In this document: piece by piece, positions 5,901-44,024 of the stretch
Layout of the letters: the number at the start of each line of letters is the position of its first letter
How positions within the stretch are numbered: the first letter of the stretch is position 1
Virus record (IMG/VR): IMGVR_UViG_3300037308_000576
Location: 1-44,024 of that record
DNA from: a virus
Lineage: Duplodnaviria; Caudoviricetes
Reading direction: 5' to 3' (one strand)
DNA: 44,024 nucleotides
Notes under the pieces: generated by a model
Told to the model about the DNA's origin: nothing
Seen by the model: the letters and a program-made list of their open reading frames with translations, nothing else
Databases searched by the model: none
Position numbers and translations under genes: made by a program

Positions 5901-7407
5901 ATTCTACGCGGACATGCTGGCGACCGCGGAGCGCCGCCGTCAGGTCCCGCAATGCATGGCCACCCTCGGACGCACCGATTTGTTCTTTCTGATCGTGCGC
6001 CTGCTCAACCGCCGTGACGTTGACCGCGATTGGCTGTATTACCGCTGCCTGGAAGTCGCCGCCGCTCCGGACGGCTATCTCGACTTATGGGCGCGGGAGC
6101 ACTATAAGTCGACCATCATCACTTTCGGTTTGACCATTCAGGACATCCTGAACGATCCGGAGTTGACGTCCTGTATATTTTCTCATAGCCGTCCGATAGC
6201 TAAAGGGTTCCTGCGCCAGATCAAGGGAGAGTTTGAGCGCAACGACCTTCTTCACTCCCTGTACCCTGACGTGCTGTACTCCGATCCCAAAAAGATGTCT
6301 CCAAAATGGTCTGAAGACGACGGGATCGTGGTGAAGCGCAAGGCCAATCCGAAGGAGGCCACTCTTGAAGCCTGGGGCCTGGTGGACGGCCAGCCTACTT
6401 CCAAGCATTATAGCCTTGCCATTTACGACGACGTCGTCACCAAGGAATCCGTTTCCACTCCTGAAATGATCAAGAAGGTGAATGATTCGTGGGAGCTTTC
6501 GTTGGCCCTTCATTCTGACGGTGGCCGCGTTCGGTATATCGGTACCCGTTATCATTTCGCTGATACTTATAAAACTATTCTAGACAGGAAGGCCGCTATA
6601 GAGCGCCGTCACCCCGGCACCACCAACGGTAAGATGACGGGCGATCCGGTGCTGTTCTCTAAAAGATATAATGATGAGAAGCGTGAACGTATGGGGTCCT
6701 ATGTTTATTCTTGCCAGATCCTGCAAGACCCCAAGGCTGATGACACTATGTCGTTTAAGCAAGAATGGTTGAGGTATTATAACAATCTTCATACCGTCGG
6801 TATGAACCGGTATCTGATCGTTGACCCGGCTTCGTCAAAGAAGAAGGGGTCCGATTACACCGTCATGTTGATCATCGGAGTGGCCCAGGACCGCAACTAC
6901 TATCTATTGGACGGAGTGCGTGATCGGCTTTCCTTGACCGAGCGGGCCATGCGGCTGTTTGGCCTCCACCAGAAGTGGCGCCCCAATAAAGTTGGGTATG
7001 AAAAGTACGGTAAGGATTCCGACATTGAACATATCCAGGATCAGATGGATAGACGAACTTATCATTTCGACATCGTTGAACTGGCCGGTACCATGTCAAA
7101 GGTCGATCGTATCCTGCGCCTGGTGCCGGTGTTCGAATTTCATCATTTCTTTTTGCCTAAATATCTGTATTTCCGCGACTATACTGGATTCCAGCGCGAT
7201 TTGATTTTGGAATTCGTCAACGAAGAATATTCTGGCTTTCCGGTCGCTTCCCATGACGACATACTGGACTGTGTGGCCCGTGTGCTTGATCCTGAATTGG
7301 GGGTGGAATTTCCGATTTCTGATGCTGACTTGGAACAGATTGGGGATTTAAGTGAGGCTGATGATGGAGACTGGTCACCGCTCAAATATTTCGGTAGAAG
7401 AGGTTGA
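5860..7407 (+). CDS. terL: Terminase large subunit
   Basis: AREHYKST (deviant Walker A), AIYDD (Walker B), IGTRYH, IVDPA...SDYT nuclease motif, HDDILDC. Confidence 0.93.
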   Translation: MIQEKLSTRKLAHEFYADMLATAERRRQVPQCMATLGRTDLFFLIVRLLNRRDVDRDWLYYRCLEVAAAPDGYLDLWAREHYKSTIITFGLTIQDILNDPELTSCIFSHSRPIAKGFLRQIKGEFERNDLLHSLYPDVLYSDPKKMSPKWSEDDGIVVKRKANPKEATLEAWGLVDGQPTSKHYSLAIYDDVVTKESVSTPEMIKKVNDSWELSLALHSDGGRVRYIGTRYHFADTYKTILDRKAAIERRHPGTTNGKMTGDPVLFSKRYNDEKRERMGSYVYSCQILQDPKADDTMSFKQEWLRYYNNLHTVGMNRYLIVDPASSKKKGSDYTVMLIIGVAQDRNYYLLDGVRDRLSLTERAMRLFGLHQKWRPNKVGYEKYGKDSDIEHIQDQMDRRTYHFDIVELAGTMSKVDRILRLVPVFEFHHFFLPKYLYFRDYTGFQRDLILEFVNEEYSGFPVASHDDILDCVARVLDPELGVEFPISDADLEQIGDLSEADDGDWSPLKYFGRRG

Positions 7408-7894
7408 ATGTTACGGTCAGGCGCGGATGTTGTGGGAGCGCATGGAGGCGGAGCGCCTGCTGCGCTGGTTCTGCAGGACCGGACCGCCTAAGCTGGATAA
7501 GTGGATCAAGAAGATGTCTAATGGAACGCGCGTGTTCTATTTACAGCGTGATTGCGCACCATTGATAGTGGTGCAATTGGAGTCGATCCGTCCGCGCCGC
7601 GCTGAGATCCATTTCGTCACTTTCCGGGCGAAGGACTTGGATAAGCCCCGTGCCGGTAGGATGATGCTATTGTATCTGATGAATAAGTTGAACATTGAAG
7701 TGTTGTACGGTTTCATTCCATCTTCAAATTTTAAAGCGATGCAGTATGGCAAGGAAGTTGGATTTAAAGTGACCGGTTATCTTCCGCAGGGGTCCTTTTC
7801 CCACGCGGACGGTCAAAGTGAATGTTCAGTTTTTGTAAATCTTTTAAGGAGTGACGCGCATGAACGGCAGATGCAAGTTGATTCAAAAAGATGA
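7352..7894 (+). CDS. GNAT-fold acetyltransferase-like protein (start uncertain)
   Basis: AEIHF...LYGFIPSSNFKAMQYGKEVGFKVTG fits the GNAT C-terminal motif; such genes are common in podovirus head regions. Confidence 0.6.
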   Translation: MRLMMETGHRSNISVEEVECYGQARMLWERMEAERLLRWFCRTGPPKLDKWIKKMSNGTRVFYLQRDCAPLIVVQLESIRPRRAEIHFVTFRAKDLDKPRAGRMMLLYLMNKLNIEVLYGFIPSSNFKAMQYGKEVGFKVTGYLPQGSFSHADGQSECSVFVNLLRSDAHERQMQVDSKR

Positions 7895-8753
7895 TTATAG
7901 GTTTGATGGTGGGGGCGACGGGGGCGACGGGGGCGACGGGGGCGACGGCGACGGAGACGGCAGCGGCCTGGGAGGCGAGGCAGGCCTGGGTGACCCTGGC
8001 GGCGGCGAGGGTGACCCTGACGGCGGCGAGGGTGACCCTGGAAATTCCGACGCCGGGGCCGAATCCGGTGGGGGTTCCCCCTTAGGGGGCAGTGAGGGGG
8101 ATGCCGGTGCTCCAGGTATGGGAGATGAAGGTTCCAGCGACGTCAGCGGTGACGTTTCCGGTGATCCGGAATCCGGGGATGATCCGGCTTTAAGCTCCCC
8201 TGAAAACAGTATCACTGCTGATGACGATGCCGTCGCTGAAGCTGAACAGGGCATCGCCAATCAGAATTCATTGAGCGCTCAAATAAATTCGATGTCCCAA
8301 GAGGTCACGTCGATCAGCGTGAATTCGGCGTTGAGCATAGCCCAGGCGGCATTGGCGCTCGCGACCGGCAACATCCCCGGTGCCATCGGTGCGATAGGGA
8401 ACGCGTTCGGCATAAACACTTCCCAAGCCGATCCGTCGGAATCGGATGCCCTTGACGCACTCGGTCTTGGGCAGTCGTCTGGCGCGGCCACGACGAGCGA
8501 CCCGCAAGGGGGGCCTGGTGATTCGACCGCCGCCGCCGGTCAGCCGCAGCCGATACAGGAGCCGATGGCCCCTCCGCCAGCCGTGACCGATGAGATCGAT
8601 GAAGTCATTAATAATGAAACTTTGTCCCCTGACGAGAAACAGGACCTGATTGAAGCCATTTTAAGGCGCGGGCGGTGGTCGACCATCCTGACTTCAGAAA
8701 GAGGACTCAGGTCCAAGGCCCCAACCAATGTCATCTCAATATTGGGATTTTAA
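7860..8753 (+). CDS. Gly/Asp/Glu-rich putative virion or ejection protein preceding the portal
   Basis: ATG 7860 with SD AAGGAG; GGD repeats; C-terminal RRGRWSTILTSERG, typical of the small pre-portal protein of BPP-1-like podoviruses. Confidence 0.7.
   Translation: MNGRCKLIQKDDYRFDGGGDGGDGGDGGDGDGDGSGLGGEAGLGDPGGGEGDPDGGEGDPGNSDAGAESGGGSPLGGSEGDAGAPGMGDEGSSDVSGDVSGDPESGDDPALSSPENSITADDDAVAEAEQGIANQNSLSAQINSMSQEVTSISVNSALSIAQAALALATGNIPGAIGAIGNAFGINTSQADPSESDALDALGLGQSSGAATTSDPQGGPGDSTAAAGQPQPIQEPMAPPPAVTDEIDEVINNETLSPDEKQDLIEAILRRGRWSTILTSERGLRSKAPTNVISILGF
7912..8041 (+). repeat. Coding tandem repeats (9-bp GGGGCGACG; 21-bp GGTGACCCTGRCGGCGGCGAG)
   Basis: Read directly; encode (GGD)n and (GDPxGGE)n. 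Confidence 0.8.
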
Positions 8754-8756
8754 GCC

Positions 8757-10436
8757 ATGGCAGACGAAAAGATCGATGAAATCAATCGTAGGTACCAGAA
8801 GATGGCCGATGATATGGTTGAAGTGATTGCTCAGTTTGTCGATCTGAGCAATTACGTCAATCCGGCTAGAGGAATGTTCACGACTCTCGGTGACCGCCCC
8901 AATGAAGTTGAGGGCAGGTGGGACCACATCATTGACGGCACGCCGATCAGGGCGGGCCGCGTCCTCGCGGCTGGAATGCAGGCCGGCATCACTTCCCCTG
9001 CCCGTCCATGGTTTCGGGCCACCCTTCCAGATCCTGGCATGATGAAGTTCAATTCGATAAAATTATGGCTTTCCCAGGTTGAAAACGTGATGCGCACCGT
9101 CTTAGCCACGTCCAATTTCTATTCGTCCATCCATCAGGTGTATGATGAGGAAGGTACGTTTGGGACCGGTGTGGTCGTGGCGGAGGAGCACCCTCAGTAC
9201 GTGGTGTGGTTCAGGGTGATGACGGCGGGTGAGTACATGCTGTCGGCTGACCGTTTTGGTCGCGTGGACACGATGTACCGGCTGTTTTACATGACCCCAC
9301 GCCAGGCAAAACAGTCACTTGAAAGCCGCAGGAAGTCGGTGCCGGAAGAGATCAATAAGATGTACAAGGATGATCCGGACAAGTGGTATCCGGTCCTCCA
9401 TGCCGTGGAGCCGAATAACGATCATGACCCAGAAAAGATTACGTCAAAAGCTTTTTCTTCCAATTATGTCATAGGCGGCGTTGGCGGGTCTTTTTCCGGG
9501 TTTGACACCATCGTATCGGCTTCCGGGTTCAATGAACAGCCCATGGCCTGCCCCCGGTGGAGCGTCGTCGGGTCTTCGGTGTACGGCATCGGCCCCGGTC
9601 ATGGAATCCTTGGGGATTCCAAGATGCTGCAGGAGATGCAGCGGTCGAAGCTGAAGGCGCTCGCTAAGATGGTCGACCCCCCGCTTAAGTCGCCGTCGGG
9701 GATGAAAAACAGGATCAAGCAGAACCCAGGCGGCGTGACGATAGTGTCGGACACGCAGATCGACAAGTTGAACGCGCTGTACCAGGTGGTGCCTGACATT
9801 CGCGGGATTCGTGAAGAGATCGCGGAGGTGCGGGAGCAGATCAAAGCTGGCATGTTCAATGATCTTTTCCTTTTCATTCAGAATAATCCTTATGCCACCG
9901 CAACCGAAATAATTGAACGGCATGAGGAGAAGTTGATTATGTTGGGTCCCGTCACCGACGCCCAGGAGCATGATCTGCTTGACGTCAGCCTTGATCGCGT
10001 GTTCGGCATCTGCGCCCGCCTTAATTTGATCCCGCCCATGCCGAAAGAATTGGTGGAGGAGATAAAGAGGAGTAATATAAAGCGCATCAACATAGACTAT
10101 ATGTCGATTTTGTCTCAAGCGCAGAAGCAGCTTGGTCATAAGCCGATCGATCAGACCTTGACGTTTGTTGAACGGTGTGCTAAAATAAAACCAGATGTCA
10201 CAGACGTGTTTAACTTTGACGAAGCTGTGAGGACATATGCAGACCAATCCGGCGCTGAACCGAAATTGATTGTAGCCCAGGACATTGTGACGGCACAGCG
10301 CGCTGAACGCATCAAGCAGGCTGCCATGATGAAAGCGGCTGAAATGAAGGCCCAACAGATCGAATCCGCGAACACTTTGTCGAGGACTGAAGTGGGCGCG
10401 GATTCAGCCTTGGATAGGGTGGCCGGAAATGCCTAA
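8757..10436 (+). CDS. Portal (head-to-tail connector)
   Basis: LAAGMQAGITSPARPWF, SNFY, YGIGPG, ATEIIERHEEKLIMLGPV: T7/BPP-1-type connector motifs. Confidence 0.95.
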   Translation: MADEKIDEINRRYQKMADDMVEVIAQFVDLSNYVNPARGMFTTLGDRPNEVEGRWDHIIDGTPIRAGRVLAAGMQAGITSPARPWFRATLPDPGMMKFNSIKLWLSQVENVMRTVLATSNFYSSIHQVYDEEGTFGTGVVVAEEHPQYVVWFRVMTAGEYMLSADRFGRVDTMYRLFYMTPRQAKQSLESRRKSVPEEINKMYKDDPDKWYPVLHAVEPNNDHDPEKITSKAFSSNYVIGGVGGSFSGFDTIVSASGFNEQPMACPRWSVVGSSVYGIGPGHGILGDSKMLQEMQRSKLKALAKMVDPPLKSPSGMKNRIKQNPGGVTIVSDTQIDKLNALYQVVPDIRGIREEIAEVREQIKAGMFNDLFLFIQNNPYATATEIIERHEEKLIMLGPVTDAQEHDLLDVSLDRVFGICARLNLIPPMPKELVEEIKRSNIKRINIDYMSILSQAQKQLGHKPIDQTLTFVERCAKIKPDVTDVFNFDEAVRTYADQSGAEPKLIVAQDIVTAQRAERIKQAAMMKAAEMKAQQIESANTLSRTEVGADSALDRVAGNA

Positions 10437-10716
10437 TATTGAACTTTACCCTGGTGAGACTAAGAGGGACCGTGAGGAACAGATAAAATACGATCTGTTC
10501 CTTGAACGTTTTAGAAAAGTCTTCAGTTCACCGGATGGTAAAGTTATTTTCAGCGACCTCATGGAACAGACGATGGTGTTCCAAACCACTTTCACCGGAA
10601 ATTCCAATACCTATTTTAATGAGGGTAAAAGGGCTATAGGCTTATACTTGCTCAAGTTGAAGAGGGAATCGTTCCAAAAACCTATAGAATCCATCACAGA
10701 AGAGGAGATTTTATGA
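10429..10716 (+). CDS. Bbp19-like protein
   Basis: VFSSPDGK...FNEGKRAIGL; located between portal and scaffold. Confidence 0.75.
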   Translation: MPNIELYPGETKRDREEQIKYDLFLERFRKVFSSPDGKVIFSDLMEQTMVFQTTFTGNSNTYFNEGKRAIGLYLLKLKRESFQKPIESITEEEIL

Positions 10717-11414
10717 GATACAGAGCGATTAGCCTGACATTCGCGGATCGCACCGCTCGAATGGGAGGCGATTCAGGGACCCCGCCCGCTGGTGGAGCCG
10801 CTCCGGCGTGGCACGTTTCGCTGCCCGATGATCTTAAGAGCAATCAGGCAGTAACCCGTCATGCATCGACGACAGACCTGATTAAAGATTATGTCAATCT
10901 TCAGGGTAAGGTTGTGAAGGTTCCGGAAAAGCCGGATCAGTACACTTTCACTCCTCCTGGCGATCTGACCGACGGAACTGTGGTGCCGGAAAATATCGTT
11001 ACCGGTTTCCGTGAGGCCGCGCACAAAGCTGGGATGTCGAACGAGCAGTATCAAGCGGCGTTGGCGTACTATGCCAACTCGCAGGATCGCGCACGTAAGG
11101 AGGCGGTCAAAGCCGAAGCCGCCGCGATCACTGAAACCACAAAAGCTCTGAAGAGCGAATTTAAGGATTTCGATTCCAAGATCGTGAAGGCGAGGCAGTT
11201 GGCCACCAAGGTAGGTGGGGAGCCGTTCATCGGTTTCCTTAAGAAGACGAAATTGGGATCCCATCCGGACATGATCCGTTTCCTGTTTTCCGTAGTGGAC
11301 CAGGTTTCCGAAGACGTGTTTATAACGTCAAAGGGAAAGGGGTCGGGAGGGGAGATGGAACGCACCCCCGGTGGGACGCCGCTTTTAAACTTCCCATCTT
11401 TGAAAAAGAAATAG
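10713..11414 (+). CDS. Capsid assembly scaffolding protein
   Basis: W..SLPDDLK...VPEKPDQY...LGSHPDMIRF; located before the major capsid gene. Confidence 0.85.
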   Translation: MRYRAISLTFADRTARMGGDSGTPPAGGAAPAWHVSLPDDLKSNQAVTRHASTTDLIKDYVNLQGKVVKVPEKPDQYTFTPPGDLTDGTVVPENIVTGFREAAHKAGMSNEQYQAALAYYANSQDRARKEAVKAEAAAITETTKALKSEFKDFDSKIVKARQLATKVGGEPFIGFLKKTKLGSHPDMIRFLFSVVDQVSEDVFITSKGKGSGGEMERTPGGTPLLNFPSLKKK

Positions 11415-11427
11415 GAGAATATAAACT

Positions 11428-12444
11428 ATGTCCAAGATTCTGTTCGTAACTTTCGCTGGCCCTCAACAGCGTCTCGCCGTCACTACCCTCGGTGCCTTGA
11501 CGCTTCTCGAACTTGCAAACCGCATGGACCCCAAGGGTGACACGGCCAAAATTGCCGAGATCCTTTCCAGGGACAATGAAATGTGGATTGATGCCGTCAT
11601 CCAGGAAGCCAATGCGGTTACACACCACCAGGTCACTCGTCGGTTCAGTCTTCCTCTCGGTACCTGGCGGCAGATCAATCAGGGCGTTCAGCCTGAAGCT
11701 TCCCGTACTGGGACGATCAATGAAAATATCGGTATGCTGGAGTCTTATAGCCAGCCCGATAAGGCGCTGGTTGACATGGCCCCTGATCCCGCAGTGTTTC
11801 GCATGCAGGAGGCCGCAGCCTTCATCGAGGGCATGAGCCAAAACATCGCCACGCAGTTCATTTACGGCAACTCCAACGTTGACGTGGAGAAGGTGACCGG
11901 ATTGGCCCCCCGCATGGCCTCACTCGCCACAACCGCCAATGTCATTGGCTGCAGCGGCACCGGCAGCGATCTCACCTCAGTGTATTTCGTCCAATGGGGC
12001 GAAGACCGTGTCTTCATGGTCTATCCCAAAGGCAACAAGACTCTTGGGATCGAGCATCGGGATCTTGGAGAGGTCACCGTTACCAATTCCGACGGTTCCA
12101 TGTTCCAGGCGTATCGGGACCATTTCAAGGTCACGATGGGTCTGGTCGTTAAGGACCCCCGGTCGATTGCCCGCCTGTGCAACATCGAGTCGGTTGGAAC
12201 ATCCAACATTTTCAACGAAGACGAGGCCATTCGTCTGATGAACCGGATGCCGATGCGTGGAAAGGGCAGCGTCCTTTACATGAATGAGACGGTCTTGACC
12301 CAGGCTGAAATCAAGCTGAAAGACAAGACCAATGTCAATTTCACCAAGGACGAGGGCATGGGCGGCGTGGAAATCATGAAGTTCCGTGGCAAGCCCATTC
12401 GGAAAATGGACGCCATCCTCAACACCGAAAGTGCTTTGACCTAA
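11428..12444 (+). CDS. Major capsid protein (BPP-1 Bbp17-like)
   Basis: LTLLELANR, WRQINQGVQP, TSVYFVQWG, GLVVKDPRSIARLCNI, FRGKPIRKMDAILNTE. Confidence 0.93.
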   Translation: MSKILFVTFAGPQQRLAVTTLGALTLLELANRMDPKGDTAKIAEILSRDNEMWIDAVIQEANAVTHHQVTRRFSLPLGTWRQINQGVQPEASRTGTINENIGMLESYSQPDKALVDMAPDPAVFRMQEAAAFIEGMSQNIATQFIYGNSNVDVEKVTGLAPRMASLATTANVIGCSGTGSDLTSVYFVQWGEDRVFMVYPKGNKTLGIEHRDLGEVTVTNSDGSMFQAYRDHFKVTMGLVVKDPRSIARLCNIESVGTSNIFNEDEAIRLMNRMPMRGKGSVLYMNETVLTQAEIKLKDKTNVNFTKDEGMGGVEIMKFRGKPIRKMDAILNTESALT

Positions 12445-29634: not shown

Positions 29635-29859
29635 ATGGGTATCTCACTGAACGATTTGAAAAAGGTCGTGGCAGAGGCCGTGGAAGAGAAGTTAACGGAG
29701 GCCAAGAACAGCAGAACCACCATCGAAACCATGCTCGCCGCCAATAAGGCCCAGGCGGAAGGGTTCTGGAAGAAGCACGGGAAGGTGGTGCTGGTTTCAT
29801 TCGGCGTCGGGTTCGGATTGGCCATCGTCCTTTCCGTGTTGGGGCTGTCTTTAAAATGA
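29635..29859 (+). CDS. Small protein with a C-terminal TM helix
   Basis: VVLVSFGVGFGLAIVLSVLGL; adjacent to the holin. Confidence 0.65.
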   Translation: MGISLNDLKKVVAEAVEEKLTEAKNSRTTIETMLAANKAQAEGFWKKHGKVVLVSFGVGFGLAIVLSVLGLSLK

Positions 29860-29873
29860 GAAAGGGGGGCAAA

Positions 29874-30341
29874 ATGATTCCCATCATCAGTGATCTTATT
29901 GCCAACACTGTCGGCAAAGTGGTGGACGGCGGAATGGACATCATCAAGAAGCTCGTCCCTGATAAGGACAAGCAGATTCAGGCCGAAATGGAGCTTCGTA
30001 ACCTCGGCATCCAAATTGCGGCTGAAGCCACTAAAATGGAGCATGAAGAGCGCATGGGGCAGATCGAGATCAACAAGATCGACGCCTCAAGCCAGGACGC
30101 CTACCAGCGTCGGGCTAGGCCGACTACGCTTTGGATCTGTAACATTGCCCTTTTCTATGTCTTCATCGGATTCCCGATCGCGGAGTGGCTCCTTAAGATA
30201 TCCGTTCTCTGGACTACAAAGCTTGCCGGAATCACCCCACCGCCGTTGCCGGATGCCGAATATCTGTTGATCGTATTGGGTGCGCTATTGGGCTTTGGTG
30301 GGTACCGCACCTTTGAGCGTGTCAAAGGCGTCATTCAATAG
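29874..30341 (+). CDS. Holin (3TM, gene-transfer-release type)
   Basis: KLVPDKD...QIEINKIDA...RARP..W...LLGFGGYRTFERVKG. Confidence 0.85.
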   Translation: MIPIISDLIANTVGKVVDGGMDIIKKLVPDKDKQIQAEMELRNLGIQIAAEATKMEHEERMGQIEINKIDASSQDAYQRRARPTTLWICNIALFYVFIGFPIAEWLLKISVLWTTKLAGITPPPLPDAEYLLIVLGALLGFGGYRTFERVKGVIQ

Positions 30342-32982: not shown

Positions 32983-34770
32983 ATGAGAGCGGAAATAACT
33001 AAAATTGAATCATTGCCTAGATTTAATGAAGGGGATGTGTTGTTTCTGGACACTGAAACCACCGGCTTGAATTACATGAAAGATAAGCCATTCATGTTCC
33101 AAGTGGGGTGGGGCGCGGGTAAATTTGCCGTCACTGATGTGGAAAAGATGGTGAAATGGCTCAATGAGAACCTGACTCGTGCCAAGATCGTGGTTGGACA
33201 CAATGTTAAATATGACATGCACATGTGCGCTAACGCGGGTGTCGATAACAATGCTATTTTTAATTCTAGATGGCATTGTACCACTGTAGGGGAATTCCTG
33301 GTGGACGACCATCAGAAATCGTACCATCTTGAAGAATTGTGCCAATCCCATTTCGGTCTTAGGAAGGAGGATAAAGCGCTGCTTGAATGGTTGGCCGCGA
33401 AATTTGGTGGCGAGCCTACGAGAAAAGCGCAAATGAAGCACATCGTTCATGCGCCTAGGGACATGGTAGCTTATTATGGAATAGGTGACGTTAAATGTGT
33501 GGAAATGCTTTATAACCGACAAATGGAGGAATACACTCAACAGGATTTATGGAAAGTGAGCGAGTTGGAGCGCAAGACGACCAGGGCGCTTTGGTGGACT
33601 GAACGCATAGGTGTGCCGATCGACATGGAGAGGTTGGAGAAAAGCGAAAAAGGTCTTAAACGAATGTGGGTTAAAGTGCAAGAGGAAATAAACAATCTTG
33701 TGGGCAGGCCCACTAACGTAAAGTCCAATAAAGATCTACTGTACGCCTTTGATCATCTTGGTCTAGAGTGCGCCATGTCGGCTTCCGGCAACGGAAAATT
33801 CGACAAGGACACATTAAAGGCAATTGATCACCCGCTGTGTAAACAAATTTTAAAATTGAGATCAATCAGGGTAATGATCGAAACTTTTATCGACACCATT
33901 CGTTCCCATGCGCATGACGATGGGCGCATTCATTGTAATCTCAATCAGACAAAAACTGAAGATTACGGGGTAAAGACCGGTAGGTTATCGGCAAGCGATC
34001 CTAATCTGCAGCAGATCCCAAAACGCAACGATGAATTTGCTTCTCTCATACGGTCCTTGTTCGTGGCGGTGTCCGGAATGAAGTGGTTTCGTGCCGATTG
34101 GAGTCAGTTCGAATTCCGCATGTTCGCCCATTACACTAAATCCCCGGCCCTGATAGAGAAATTCAAGCAGGATAAGACTATTGACTACCATCAGGCGGTG
34201 GCCGATCTGACGGGATTGATTCGTGACCCCCATGCCAAACAATTGAACCTTGGGTTGGTGTTCGGCATGGGCGAGGGACTTATGGCTATGAAATGCGGCT
34301 TGCCATACCGTATCGAAATCGTGTACGGAAAGGAAGTCAAACGGGCGGGCGATGAGGCCAAAAAGATATTCAACACCTACCATCAAACGTTACCGGAAGT
34401 CAGACAGATGCTATTGACGGCTGAACGGAAAGCAAAGGCCGTGGGGTTTGTGCGCACGTTGTTCGGTAGAAAACTTAGGTTCCCGAATCGATACGGGTGC
34501 CATAAAGCGGCGGGTTATGTGTTCCAGGGATCATCAGCCGATATGATGAAAAAGAAATGTTGTGAATTGGTGGAAGCTTCATATGGCACCGACGTACAAT
34601 TCATGCTTCCGGTACATGATGAATTTAATCTTCTCGGTCCGATAGACGCGGAAAACGAAATCAAGGAGGTGATGGCGTCGATACTTGAAGACTGTCCAGA
34701 AATGAGGGTTCCGGTATATGCTGATATCGGGATGGGTGACGATTGGTGGCAAGCAACGAAAGGGGCTTAA
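32983..34770 (+). CDS. dpoZ: Family A DNA polymerase with 3'-5' exonuclease, DpoZ-like
   Basis: DTETTG, HNVKYD, TGRLSASDPNLQQIP, motif A DWSQFEFR, motif B AKQLNLGLVFG, motif C VHDE; co-located with purZ. Confidence 0.85.
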   Translation: MRAEITKIESLPRFNEGDVLFLDTETTGLNYMKDKPFMFQVGWGAGKFAVTDVEKMVKWLNENLTRAKIVVGHNVKYDMHMCANAGVDNNAIFNSRWHCTTVGEFLVDDHQKSYHLEELCQSHFGLRKEDKALLEWLAAKFGGEPTRKAQMKHIVHAPRDMVAYYGIGDVKCVEMLYNRQMEEYTQQDLWKVSELERKTTRALWWTERIGVPIDMERLEKSEKGLKRMWVKVQEEINNLVGRPTNVKSNKDLLYAFDHLGLECAMSASGNGKFDKDTLKAIDHPLCKQILKLRSIRVMIETFIDTIRSHAHDDGRIHCNLNQTKTEDYGVKTGRLSASDPNLQQIPKRNDEFASLIRSLFVAVSGMKWFRADWSQFEFRMFAHYTKSPALIEKFKQDKTIDYHQAVADLTGLIRDPHAKQLNLGLVFGMGEGLMAMKCGLPYRIEIVYGKEVKRAGDEAKKIFNTYHQTLPEVRQMLLTAERKAKAVGFVRTLFGRKLRFPNRYGCHKAAGYVFQGSSADMMKKKCCELVEASYGTDVQFMLPVHDEFNLLGPIDAENEIKEVMASILEDCPEMRVPVYADIGMGDDWWQATKGA

Positions 34771-34771
34771 G

Positions 34772-35371
34772 ATGGCGAAATTCAATGAGGGCTTGTTGTA
34801 TTTAGGGCCGATTGAAGGCGGCTACGTCAATGACCCCGTTGATTCAGGCGGGGAAACTTATCGCGGGATCGCGAGGAGATTTCATCCGTCCTGGGGCGGG
34901 TGGCCGTTCATCGATCAATTGAAAACTACATGTAACACCGTGACCGAGTTGGCTGCGGCACTTACAAAACCGCCGCCGATGATTGAGGCCATGGTGGCAG
35001 ATTTTTATCGGATAAAGTTTTGGGAGGCCGTGGGCGGCGATCATATCGCGGACCAGGATGTGGCTAATCAATTTTTTCAGGCCGGCGTCCTGTTTAATCC
35101 GGTAAGAGCGATTCGTGCCATGCAGCAGGCGCTGAATGTACTGAACCGAGAGGGCAAATTGTTCGCTGACTTACAGGAAGACGGCATCATCGGATCGAAA
35201 ACGATAGTGGCGGTCAACACGCTCTGCATGGCCGGGGACAAACAGATCCTAAGATTGGCGTTCGCAGTGTATCAAGCTGCCATGTGCCTGGAACTGGCGA
35301 AAAAGGACCCGAAAAAGGAAAAGTATATTCGTGGATGGTTGACGCGGGCAATGAAAGGGTTAATTAAATGA
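34772..35371 (+). CDS. Endolysin, glycoside hydrolase family 108 with a peptidoglycan-binding domain
   Basis: EGGYVNDPVDSGGETYRGI; DGIIGSKT; KYIRGWLTR. Confidence 0.92.
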   Translation: MAKFNEGLLYLGPIEGGYVNDPVDSGGETYRGIARRFHPSWGGWPFIDQLKTTCNTVTELAAALTKPPPMIEAMVADFYRIKFWEAVGGDHIADQDVANQFFQAGVLFNPVRAIRAMQQALNVLNREGKLFADLQEDGIIGSKTIVAVNTLCMAGDKQILRLAFAVYQAAMCLELAKKDPKKEKYIRGWLTRAMKGLIK

Positions 35372-35766
35372 AAATCTATTTTGCAGCACCGTGCTTTTCC
35401 CATGCTGAGCGTGAATGGAATCTGAAAATGGCCAACGAATTGACCACGATGGGGCATAATGTGTTTTTACCTCAAAGAGACAACAACGAGGGCATTTTAG
35501 AGAACATTTGCCTTGCCAATATTGCGGCGATTAGGAGATGCGATTTCGTGGTGGCCATATTCGATCGTTCAGACCCCGATTCCGGCACCGCATGGGAGTG
35601 CGGTTTCGCCCATGCCATCAGTAAAATCGTGTATGCAATACGTACCGACTTCCGTCGGGGCGGTGATGATGCGCGGTTCGAAGTCAATCTAATGTTGTCG
35701 TGCACCGCCGATGTCATTTTCACTGACCTAACTCACTTCTGGACGACCATGCGGTCGAAATTGTAA
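35368..35766 (+). CDS. Nucleoside 2'-deoxyribosyltransferase / dNMP N-glycosidase family protein
   Basis: KIYFAAP.F...CDFVVA...DSGTAWECGFA (Glu nucleophile)...NLML. Confidence 0.88.
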   Translation: MKIYFAAPCFSHAEREWNLKMANELTTMGHNVFLPQRDNNEGILENICLANIAAIRRCDFVVAIFDRSDPDSGTAWECGFAHAISKIVYAIRTDFRRGGDDARFEVNLMLSCTADVIFTDLTHFWTTMRSKL

Positions 35767-35776
35767 AGGAGGACGA

Positions 35777-36895
35777 ATGTTTAGAGCTTACATGATCATT
35801 GACGGTCAATGGGGTTCCACGGGCAAGGGGCTGTTGTGCGGGTACCTGTCTCGTTTGGTGGAACCGGACGTGGTAGTATGCAATTTCGGGGCCAATGCCG
35901 GGCATACTTATGTGTATGATGATGGTAAAACCATCATGACGCAACAACTTCCAACGGCGGCGATTACCGGCCCCAAAATCACTATGGTCTTGATCGGTCC
36001 AGGATCAATCATAGATCAAAGAATCTTGCTGCGTGAAATGGATATGATGAGCGCAGTTCGGGGAGGACTTGCGCCGGAAATTTATATCCATGAACGTGCC
36101 GCTGTCATCACGCAAGAGCACAAGGACATTGAGTGTAAAAAATTGAATTCGATCTCTTCCACCTGTAAAGGAGTGGGTGCAGCCCAGGCATCAAAAGTGA
36201 TGCGAGAACCGGATTGTACAGTGCGAGATTATTCCCATCTCAAGTTCGCCCCCGCCCGTATAGTGTCCGACAAGGAGTATGTTAATTTGCTGTGTTTGGC
36301 GCGGACGGTACAGATCGAATCAGCTCAGGGGTTCGAATTGGGGGTGAATACCGGGTCCCATTACCCCTACTGCACGGCGCGGGATGTCACGCCGTGGCAA
36401 GTGTTGTCGGATTGCGCGATTCCTCAGGCACTCCTCATCAACTGCGATAGATACGTAGTGATGCGCACTTTCCCCATTCGGGTGGGCAATGCGTTTGACA
36501 AAGATGGCAGCCAGATCGGATGGAGTGGGCCGGTTTATGATGATCAGCAAGAGGTCGAATGGGGCGATTTTCCAGGGGTGGAACCGGAAAAGACGACGGT
36601 GACCAAAAAGGTTCGTCGGATTTTCACCTTCTCGTACAAGGCGTTGGAGAGGATGATCTATCGGCTTGACCCCACCAGCGTGTTTCTTAACTTCGTCAAT
36701 TACCTGGAGGAAGATCCGACTTTCAATGCCATAAGGACCCAAGCCATGATATTGAAGATCGAAGAAACGTACCGTAAAGTGTGCATCAATCACGGACTGC
36801 ACATTCGTACGCCGTTTGTGCGGTGGATCGGCACCGGCCCCCGTCATGGTAACGTATTGGAAAGGCCGTGGACAGGTGATGTCGATGAATCGTAG
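35777..36895 (+). CDS. purZ: PurZ, N6-succino-2-amino-dAMP synthetase
   Basis: PurA fold with DGQWGSTGKG (Ser in place of the PurA catalytic Asp of GDEGKG), NAGHT, AQGFEL, YPYCT.RD, RTFPIRV, TTVTKKVRRI, FLNFVNY. Confidence 0.93.
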   Translation: MFRAYMIIDGQWGSTGKGLLCGYLSRLVEPDVVVCNFGANAGHTYVYDDGKTIMTQQLPTAAITGPKITMVLIGPGSIIDQRILLREMDMMSAVRGGLAPEIYIHERAAVITQEHKDIECKKLNSISSTCKGVGAAQASKVMREPDCTVRDYSHLKFAPARIVSDKEYVNLLCLARTVQIESAQGFELGVNTGSHYPYCTARDVTPWQVLSDCAIPQALLINCDRYVVMRTFPIRVGNAFDKDGSQIGWSGPVYDDQQEVEWGDFPGVEPEKTTVTKKVRRIFTFSYKALERMIYRLDPTSVFLNFVNYLEEDPTFNAIRTQAMILKIEETYRKVCINHGLHIRTPFVRWIGTGPRHGNVLERPWTGDVDES

Positions 36896-37358
36896 AAAAT
36901 ACAAATCGATGTTACAAGAGGCCATCATGGTTGATGGCCTCGATTTCTGCCTCAACGCGCTGCAGGAGGAGTGCGCCGAATTGATCGTTGCCATCTCTCA
37001 CCTGCGGCGCGAGAGGTGCGGTCGTAGTCAGGTTATGATGGAGATGGCGGATGTGCAAATTATGTTCGATCTGGTACTAACCGGATTCGGACATGGGCGC
37101 GTTATGCTTGATCGCATGATATACGAAAAAGCCACTATAATTGGGGAAAAGGTCCGGTTTAGGAGAGACAATGGACAAAATGGCCTTTCAAAACACGTTA
37201 CGGCTGTCGCATGTCCCACGATGGGTGATCGTAGACATGTTGAAACCACAAAGCGTATCGGATCACTCCTTCCGAGTGATGGCGGTATGTCTTCGGTTGA
37301 TGAAGAAGCTGAGGGTCACGGAATTACAGAACATTTTAGCCTCTATCCTGATTCATGA
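36885..37358 (+). CDS. MazG-like NTP pyrophosphohydrolase (MazZ-role candidate)
   Basis: QEECAEL...EMADV all-alpha NTP-PPase motif; lies between purZ and datZ. Confidence 0.75.
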   Translation: MNRRKYKSMLQEAIMVDGLDFCLNALQEECAELIVAISHLRRERCGRSQVMMEMADVQIMFDLVLTGFGHGRVMLDRMIYEKATIIGEKVRFRRDNGQNGLSKHVTAVACPTMGDRRHVETTKRIGSLLPSDGGMSSVDEEAEGHGITEHFSLYPDS

Positions 37359-37644
37359 CTTGGATGAGGCCGAAACTGGTGATACCCCATCCAATCACAA
37401 AACGGAAGTTCCGAAAAACGGAAGTTGTAAAGATTTACAAGAAGCACTGATCAAGTTGTCCGATACCATCGAAGCGACCATCTGGCTGGAGCGTTACGCA
37501 GTGCGACCAGGACGAATAAGGAGGTGGCTGGAATCAAAATTAAATTTCTTGACCAGTGAAACGAGCAGATTCATCGCAATAAGTGAACGCGCAATCATGG
37601 ACGCGGTCACTGAAGTGATTACAGAGGGAACCTCCTATGATTGA
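37171..37644 (+). CDS. datZ: HD-domain dATP triphosphohydrolase (DatZ-like)
   Basis: LSHVPRW...QSVSDHSFRV...HDLDEAETGD.P...K..D; ATG 37171 with SD AGGAG; within the purZ cluster. Confidence 0.85.
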   Translation: MDKMAFQNTLRLSHVPRWVIVDMLKPQSVSDHSFRVMAVCLRLMKKLRVTELQNILASILIHDLDEAETGDTPSNHKTEVPKNGSCKDLQEALIKLSDTIEATIWLERYAVRPGRIRRWLESKLNFLTSETSRFIAISERAIMDAVTEVITEGTSYD

Positions 37645-39112
37645 CGAATCGGTAGTTACGAGATTTATGGCCGTATTTTCCGGCCTGAATAGAGCGTATG
37701 GCCGATACTTGAACGGCCAGGCCAGGACCATCTTAAAACCGGTTGGTAAGGAACTGTACACAAAGCACCTGGAAGGAAAACAGGGCCTTGGAATCGTTCC
37801 TGTAAACGACAAAAATATGTGCATATTTGGGGCCATTGACATAGATAACAACGGTGTAAATCACGTTGAACTGGAAAAGAAAGTAATAGAGTATGACATT
37901 CCCTTGGTAGTATGCAGAAGCAAATCAGGGGGCGCCCATCTTTACTCGTTTCAACCGTTGCCTGGGGTCCCGGCTTCAGTGATGCAAATGAACTTGTCAT
38001 CATATGCATCAAGATTGGGGTACGGTAATAGTGAAATTTTCCCCAAACAGACCAGGCTACGTGACGGTGAAGCCGGCAACTGGATAAACTTGCCATATTA
38101 CAACAGTTCGGAACGGGTGGCCGTTATCAATGGCGAAAATGCTGAATTGACCGGTTTCTTGGACCTGGTCGATTCAATGAAATCGATGGAAATAACCCTC
38201 GATGGCAATGGCACTGGAAAGAGTGCCGAATCCCCGCCCTGTCTAGTGTGGGCTATGGAAAATGGGATTCCGATATCGCATAGGAATGAAACATTATTTA
38301 ACATGGCGATATTCCTTAAAAGGGCGCACCCTGCCGATTGGGAGGACCGGCTGGTAAAAATTAATATGGAGCGATGCGACCAACCGCTTCCGCGTAAGGA
38401 ATTAGAAAAAATCATCAAATCGGTGGACAAGAAGGATTACCGGTATCGGTGCACCGACCCGCTGATAGCCGAGCATTGTGATAGATTAAAATGTGCACAA
38501 ATACAATTCGGCATCGGCACCATGCCAAATTCATTCGACAATTTAATGATGGGCAGAATCATAAAAGTTATGACCGATCCCCCGCATTGGATCGTTGATC
38601 TTAATGGAAAGGACACGAGACTAACTACTGAGGAATTGATGGATTATCAGGTTATTAGGAAAAGGGGCATGGAATTGCACAATCTAATATGGCCGTTCAT
38701 GAAAAGGGAGGAATGGGCGCAGATCCTAAAATCCAGAATGAAGGATGTTAAGGAATTGGAAGCGCCAGAGGATGCTTCAAAGTATGGGGACCTGTATGAC
38801 ATGCTAAGGGAATTCATGTCCCTTGGCCTAAGAAACGTGGACCGTGGGGCCATGACACGGGGAATACCGTGCCTGACTGAATTGAATGGGGCGAAAGTGA
38901 TCGCTTTCAGGAGTCAGGACTTTGTGTCGTTTCTCAAAAAGAAGAGATTCAGGCCGATCCAAAACCCCGATATGTGGATGGCCTTAAGGCAAGTTGGGTG
39001 CGACCACACCAAAGTTAAAGTGGAAGACCGTGCCGTTCAAGTGTGGTATTCACCGTATGATGGAACCATGGACGTTACGCCAAAGGATTTGGACGACGTA
39101 TCCGAATTTTAA
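37637..39112 (+). CDS. AEP-family primase-polymerase with a PriCT-like domain
   Basis: GAIDID, RSKSGGAHLY, EIFPKQ, GNWINLPY, PPC...RNETLF. Confidence 0.9.
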   Translation: MIDESVVTRFMAVFSGLNRAYGRYLNGQARTILKPVGKELYTKHLEGKQGLGIVPVNDKNMCIFGAIDIDNNGVNHVELEKKVIEYDIPLVVCRSKSGGAHLYSFQPLPGVPASVMQMNLSSYASRLGYGNSEIFPKQTRLRDGEAGNWINLPYYNSSERVAVINGENAELTGFLDLVDSMKSMEITLDGNGTGKSAESPPCLVWAMENGIPISHRNETLFNMAIFLKRAHPADWEDRLVKINMERCDQPLPRKELEKIIKSVDKKDYRYRCTDPLIAEHCDRLKCAQIQFGIGTMPNSFDNLMMGRIIKVMTDPPHWIVDLNGKDTRLTTEELMDYQVIRKRGMELHNLIWPFMKREEWAQILKSRMKDVKELEAPEDASKYGDLYDMLREFMSLGLRNVDRGAMTRGIPCLTELNGAKVIAFRSQDFVSFLKKKRFRPIQNPDMWMALRQVGCDHTKVKVEDRAVQVWYSPYDGTMDVTPKDLDDVSEF

Positions 39113-43810: not shown

Positions 43811-44024
43811 CTACTTGGAGGATTTGGCGGGGCCTTTACCCTTGACCTTGGCGGTCGGGGCCTTGGCGACACCTTTCGTGGCCTTCTTCGCAGCGGGCGC
43901 AGTGGCGATACGGGCTTTCTTGTTTTGCCAGCGGCGGGCGCGGCGTTCGCGCATCGTACAGGGTTTGCACTTCGTCACCTGGAAGAGATCCGCATTCTTG
44001 ACCCATCGGACGTTTCCGCATTCG
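43811..44024 (-). CDS. 3' end of the junction-spanning gene that starts at 1075
   Basis: ...CKPCTMRERRARRWQNKKARIATAPAAKKATKGVAKAPTAKVKGKGPAKSSK*. Confidence 0.8.
   Translation of the reverse strand, partial: ECGNVRWVKNADLFQVTKCKPCTMRERRARRWQNKKARIATAPAAKKATKGVAKAPTAKVKGKGPAKSSK
43837..44024. repeat. Terminal direct repeat, copy 2
   Basis: Matches 1-188 with one mismatch. Confidence 0.95.

Follow-up and report, generated by a model that had tools for sequence, protein, structure and literature searches.

A nucleoside deoxyribosyltransferase gene adjoining purZ in a DatZ-type Z cassette: probable identity and a candidate role in deoxyadenosine removal

A 44-kb virus record carries, inside a canonical Z cassette, a real and probably functional nucleoside 2'-deoxyribosyltransferase (NDT), as judged from its reading frame, residues and modeled fold. 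Placed in a cassette with datZ, the enzyme likely acts on the deoxyadenosine (dA) that DatZ is predicted to release and drains it, a reading to which we assign a probability of about 0.55. It is a new, rare example of a published role and not a new pathway; the original prediction of a new Z-pathway enzyme was anticipated by NDT-family enzymes of Z phages already in the literature (DmtZ; NDT-M2).

Genome record and Z cassette

The window, meaning the whole stretch of DNA analyzed (44,024 nt; IMG/VR record IMGVR_UViG_3300037308_000576), has a CheckV completeness of 83%. Its first 127 nt are identical to positions 43837-43963, the second copy ending 61 nt before the window end, and given this repeat the window may be a closed circle despite its linear class. 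Genes run in the order uvrD-like, dpoZ, lysin, NDT, purZ, mazG-like, datZ and AEP primase, with these features:

32983..34770, + strand: dpoZ, Z-incorporating class of family A DNA polymerase (NF038380.1, 511.5 bits, cut-off 500; PF00476)
34772..35371, + strand: lysin with GH108 and peptidoglycan-binding domains (PF05838, PF09374)
35368..35766, + strand: predicted nucleoside 2'-deoxyribosyltransferase, nucleoside (5'-OH) type (PF05014; residues; DpNDT and CtNDT as best matches)
35767..35776, + strand: 10-nt spacer with a Shine-Dalgarno-like AGGAGG for purZ (sequence)
35777..36895, + strand: purZ, ATP-type (Ser14; FLNFVNY; profile and PDB matches)
36879..37358, + strand: MazG-like NTP pyrophosphohydrolase (phrog_2245, E 4e-10; equivalent placement in the closest purZ loci)
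37171..37644, + strand: datZ, HD dATP triphosphohydrolase (PF13023; phrog_7076, E 1e-18; R-W-x-I motif)
37637..39112, + strand: AEP-type primase(-polymerase) (PF22548, PF08708; phrog_21866)

All four functions of the canonical PurZ-MazZ-DatZ-DpoZ system (S-2L, phiVC8, SH-Ab 15497) have a gene here, relative to which the NDT is an extra one, and the PurZ, DatZ, MazZ-like and DpoZ genes together suggest that the phage DNA contains Z. In the PurZ motif DGQWGSTGKG, Ser14 occupies the position of PurA Asp13, and FLNFVNY lies at the NTP site; the best PDB match is S-2L PurZ (7odx, E 3e-57, versus E 2e-21 for 7vf6, which we take to be PurZ0), and the best family is NF038379 (268 bits, below its cut-off of 300). 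The MazG-like protein, with no Pfam match in the profile search, likely fills the MazZ role (dGTP to dGMP), its position being what suggests dGTP specificity; its frame is 159 aa long and overlaps datZ by 187 nt, and its closest relatives have 96-108 aa. DatZ keeps the R-W-x-I motif that corresponds to R19/W20/I22 of S-2L.

The lysin, a singleton among the purZ neighbors compared, is outside the Z pathway; its stop overlaps the NDT start codon (ATGA). This GH108 gene is embedded among the replication and Z genes, roughly 4.4 kb away from the holin (29856-30341). The combination of DpoZ with an AEP primase next to datZ is seen again in four other loci (L001, L084, L087, L243). On spacing alone, NDT and purZ are predicted to share an operon; the promoter and terminator scan gave nothing above chance level.

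Enzyme type and predicted substrate

The original prediction described an NDT-fold gene with a Tyr, a DSGTAWE Glu and an NLML motif that ends 10 nt before purZ, and this description is accurate. The open reading frame (35368-35766, + strand) encodes 132 aa without an internal stop, and exactly 10 nt, containing AGGAGG, separate its stop from the purZ ATG (35777). A contig from a second run in another study (X2) covers 33392-37600, including the NDT-purZ junction; strain variants in that run comprise two conservative NDT changes (H30Y and I87V), too few for a selection test. The protein matches PF05014 at 81.9 bits (E 4.9e-23; cut-off 28.8), and its AlphaFold model (pLDDT 90.9) has DpNDT as best fold match (7o62; TM 0.84; E 2e-11), with CtNDT at a TM of about 0.8 and far weaker matches to DNPH1 and MilB (E about 4e-4). 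DpNDT (E 9e-15) and CtNDT (E 2e-11) are also the best solved relatives by sequence. Both are tetrameric bacterial NDTs that share the TD-R and NLM/N-M motifs with the window enzyme; they differ in being cellular and in having an Asp (DpNDT Asp74, CtNDT Asp62) where the window NDT has Asn51.

The nearest homologs are 45-52% identical and are ordinary NDTs. Cultured phages with homologs, among the tblastn matches listed, infect Enterococcus, Bacillus, Geobacillus, Streptococcus and Lactococcus, and no cultured PurZ-type phage with a homolog of the window or L031 NDT (see below) was among those matches. A plasmid search returned distant NDTs only, and a single-protein IMG/VR scan with the NDT gave no locus. 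None of 36 longer NDT matches carried a fused Z-enzyme domain, and none of four longer PurZ matches an NDT domain.

Active-site residues point to the nucleoside type. Residues Y4, D71, E77 (of DSGTAWE), N107 (of NLML) and M109 match DpNDT Y16, D94, E100, N127 and M129, with D71 invariant in 90/90 homologs and N107 present in 80/90; P35 of the water-shielding loop is also kept. In nucleoside transferases, the sugar 5'-OH is held by an Asp lying six residues N-terminal to the Glu together with the NLM Asn, and a Tyr rather than Phe is the mark of deoxy specificity, excluding ribose. DmtZ and dNMP hydrolases, as described by Poubanne 2026 (PMC12884076), are without the 5'-OH Asp/Asn and form a phosphate pocket from small uncharged residues; D71 aligns with DmtZ T97, and N107 is kept. 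By residue, then, the predicted enzyme is a nucleoside enzyme, not a dNMP glycosidase or DmtZ. Position 51 is variable among the 90 homologs (D 36, N 22, C 21, A 6, other 5), and Asn51 says little because it is found in those 22 besides DmtZ and L031.

S-2L DatZ converts dATP to dA in one step, with no intermediate seen and dAMP not a substrate, and a nucleoside-type NDT would fit such a partner. Since D71 and N107 are nucleoside-type residues, the likely substrate is dA, the DatZ product, rather than dAMP. The original prediction had the enzyme destroy the dA or dAMP left by DatZ: disposal of dA is plausible and matches the NDT-M2 preprint, whereas the dNMP-glycosidase branch is unsupported because D71/N107 are 5'-OH-binding residues and S-2L DatZ makes dA directly. 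Whether the enzyme is purine-only or broad is not readable from its sequence; DpNDT, the closest solved enzyme, is of type II, accepts purines and pyrimidines and has been called a poor catalyst.

Association with purZ and comparison loci

PurZ loci came from collected scans, one of which took 120 of approximately 470 matching IMG/VR stretches. Among 289 stored PurZ-profile-positive sequences (not dereplicated; the window, L031 and two cultured PurZ0 phages are among them), an NDT with the Asp and Asn (D/N type) occurred in just the window and L031. From 200 purZ loci, 146 distinct virus records were chosen, leaving out duplicates and most short contigs; a whole-record profile search found PF05014 above cut-off in 0/146 and at E <= 0.01 in four (L370, L298, L158 and L364). 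The L370 match looks spurious, and the remaining records have remote NDT folds that lack D71/N107. A D/N-type NDT was likewise absent from 86 PurZ loci of metagenome and genome collections, many of them short. An NDT is absent from all of the closest purZ loci, their polA-purZ slot being empty or holding other genes; across other purZ loci it holds ThyX, ligase, dUTPase or dCMP deaminase. As datZ is present in 195/249 purZ loci, DatZ phages are mostly without this NDT gene.

In the opposite direction, 107 NDT-bearing IMG/VR contigs distinct by name (best 80 of 129, plus 17, plus 10) were inspected with 5- to 10-kb flanks. One (L031) had purZ near the NDT, and 106/107 had no purZ in those flanks; the chance expectation, computed before adjacency was counted, was 0.017 contigs among 107, or 0.05-0.09 allowing three- to fivefold for length. 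Phage NDTs mostly lie instead beside dNK, nucleoside transporter, thymidylate kinase, NrdD or polA genes. A whole-record search of 49 NDT-bearing records found PF00709 in five, L031 and four others, of which three read GDEGKG (Asp type) and the fourth has no PurZ-profile score. The co-occurrence of NDT and purZ is thus suggestive, resting on one further case, and the NDT is a rare add-on to Z cassettes; the enrichment next to purZ anticipated by the original prediction gained that case and is otherwise weak (0/146 purZ records; 1/107 NDT contigs).

L031 (IMGVR_UViG_3300020047_011218, 6728-11509) has the order dpoZ-purZ-mazZ(PF04447)-NDT-datZ, with PurZ and DpoZ both above their model cut-offs. 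Its NDT is 38% identical to that of the window and also has Asn at the position of Asn51. The two NDTs were sisters in 0/200 bootstrap trees; a single origin was not rejected (p-AU 0.89 in a quick test, in which the constrained tree scored higher, and 0.40 in a careful one). Both D/N-type NDTs beside purZ, those of the window and L031, are accompanied by datZ. A "DUF1599-like" label for one neighbor cluster (c0) was discarded as unreliable, one of its members being PF04447.

HD_3 was matched in 0/5 records with NDT folds of other types (Ghobes, Wayne, L298, L158 and L364), two of which are only 12-15% complete. In L298 (7941-10512), an Rcl-type NDT fold (PSAGTSME), whose residue at the D71 position is Ser, adjoins a dimeric-dUTPase-like gene, one member of whose cluster matches PF08761; the locus also has purZ and a kinase-like gene, and no datZ was found in the 15-kb fragment. 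L298 may represent a third route that resembles DmtZ and uses an ATP-type PurZ. In this small sample, the type of NDT seems to track what the upstream phosphohydrolase produces. L428 (2357-6453) has a UDG-like-fused Pol A, a homing endonuclease and a YfbR-like HD nucleotidase gene abutting a D/N-type NDT, with no purZ on the 57-kb, half-complete record; given this locus, the pairing of HD and NDT genes may not concern Z.

Proposed role and alternatives

In NDT chemistry, a Glu displaces the base by attack on C1', and the sugar is then handed to another base or to water; the exchange of bases can run both ways, its direction set by pools. From the observed gene, neighbors, residues and fold model, we infer the following substrate, acceptor, direction and bearing on Z content. 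DatZ would flood the cell with dA, driving the reaction away from dA; Glu77 would cut the glycosidic bond, free adenine and hold the deoxyribose, which would pass to an available base (Z or guanine; pyrimidine if the enzyme is type II) or slowly to water. Draining dA in this way would keep host kinases from restoring dATP, and the freed adenine would return to the ribonucleotide pool through host salvage, which turns adenine into AMP. The phage genome has no match to PF01712 (dNK) or PF00265 (TK), so any dZ or dG product would need a host kinase to become a nucleotide, and the dA drain is therefore better founded than the making of Z precursor. The closed recycling loop into Z precursor that had been proposed would need both a free acceptor base and a kinase, and is hypothetical.

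The residue match to DpNDT and the one-step dA chemistry of DatZ are consistent with the dA role, and L031, a second, distant Z phage with the same enzyme type in its cassette, favors it. The dA preference of NDT-M2 (see below) also speaks for it. The rarity of the gene among purZ records and the ordinary character of its nearest homologs weigh against it, as do the inactivity of NDT-M3, the poor catalysis of DpNDT, the missing dNK and TK matches and the HD-NDT pair of L428. A host purine nucleoside phosphorylase could remove dA equally well, and this may account for that rarity.

It is possible, if doubtful, that the gene encodes a general deoxynucleoside-exchange enzyme that was acquired at a variable site within the replication module and plays no part specific to Z. 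Phage NDTs mostly stand without purZ and near other nucleotide-metabolism or replication genes, the slot also accommodates the lysin in this phage and, elsewhere among purZ loci, ThyX, ligase, dUTPase or dCMP deaminase, and the cultured phages with homologs, among the matches listed, are those of Enterococcus, Bacillus, Geobacillus, Streptococcus and Lactococcus. Such a view must however accommodate the placement of an NDT between mazZ and datZ in a second Z phage, L031, and the independent enrichment of NDTs in dZ-selected contigs reported by Yang 2025. We consider it improbable that the enzyme chiefly hydrolyzes dA, Asn51 substituting for the customary Asp so that water is favored as acceptor and adenine plus deoxyribose are formed in an irreversible sink. 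Asn51 aligns with DmtZ N77, whose change to Asp lowers activity (PMC12884076), the L031 NDT likewise has Asn, and NDTs hydrolyze when acceptor is scarce; against this, the same Asn is present in 22/90 other homologs, TbPDT has it and is a very active transferase, and P35 of the water-shielding loop is retained.

A DmtZ- or Rcl-like enzyme on dAMP, hydrolyzing it or moving deoxyribose 5-phosphate to Z to give dZMP, would require no kinase, and the fold and Tyr/Asn/Glu triad are common to NDT and DmtZ. This is very unlikely: D71/N107 fill the phosphate site, where DmtZ has Thr at the D71 position, the match to the Ghobes DmtZ spans only 36 residues, DatZ yields no dAMP, and DmtZ is reported with PurZ0 and DutZ (PMC12884076). 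Participation in a second base-modification route, raised by the original prediction, has as its sole point in favor that NDT-fold enzymes serve other nucleoside pathways (MilB); nothing pointing to a further modification enzyme was found among the window proteins scanned, and we give this very little credence.

The dA-draining role has precedent. Yang et al. (bioRxiv 10.1101/2025.10.22.683976) report an enrichment of PF05014 among dZ contigs that also carry DatZ and Pol A, the NDTs not lying immediately next to purZ, and propose that these enzymes deplete dA by base exchange. Of ten dZ-contig NDTs, two were purified there: M2 was active and M3 inactive on dA, dG and dZ. NDT-M2 was purine-specific and preferred dA 3.4-fold over dZ and 37-fold over dG. 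The window NDT resembles NDT-M2 as a PF05014 phage enzyme accompanied by DatZ and Pol A, and on that description it would work like NDT-M2.

It is not DmtZ. That enzyme, a dAMP hydrolase/transferase found in 85/98 PurZ0 genomes (Poubanne 2026, PMC12884076, where PurZ-type phages with DatZ and MazZ are also covered), likewise belongs to the NDT superfamily, has the Tyr/Asn/Glu triad, stands in a Z cassette and removes an adenine deoxynucleos(t)ide. DmtZ differs in acting on dAMP, having no 5'-OH Asp/Asn and accompanying PurZ0 and DutZ, whereas the window NDT has D71/N107, an ATP-type PurZ and DatZ and is alignable with DmtZ over 36 residues (33%). Literature background also came from PMC12372993, PMC12645435, PMC7308715, PMC8065100 and PMC8342488.

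What may be new is an NDT directly in a DatZ-type purZ operon, which gives a direct purZ linkage absent from the available parts of the 2025 preprint (Figures 4B, S4 and S8 of Yang may show similar cases), and possibly also the small-sample match of NDT type to dATPase product. Extended further, that match would have Z phages recruiting NDT folds repeatedly to suit the dATPase product: nucleoside-type with DatZ (dA; the window and L031, perhaps two captures) and nucleotide-type with dUTPase-like enzymes (dAMP; DmtZ with DutZ, and L298), the window enzyme being dA-selective and feeding Z or guanine into dZTP. We consider this extension rather unlikely. If true, the window NDT would be a counterpart of the DmtZ route at the nucleoside level, retained in hosts that lack purine nucleoside phosphorylase or that possess a dA kinase.

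Nearly all sampled purZ phages are without the NDT, and the Z pathway is unchanged by it. Z-DNA engineered in E. coli has been toxic and incomplete, the S-2L triad replacing 12% of plasmid adenine, and the NDT is a small, ready candidate for dealing with the fate of dA, its cassette having each of the four canonical genes.

Several other loci were recorded in passing. In L379 (1471-3270; the record of L364), an NDT fold and a DeoC-like gene precede purZ. Large phages (L061, 8469-10312; L372-L374) carry a divergent PurA-like gene (GDEGKG in L372-L374), which in L061 lies with an HAD gene just before an NDT. L087 (6753-7754) and L088 encode, between purZ and datZ, a 334-aa protein with a dUTPase domain after 200 N-terminal residues that have no assigned domain.
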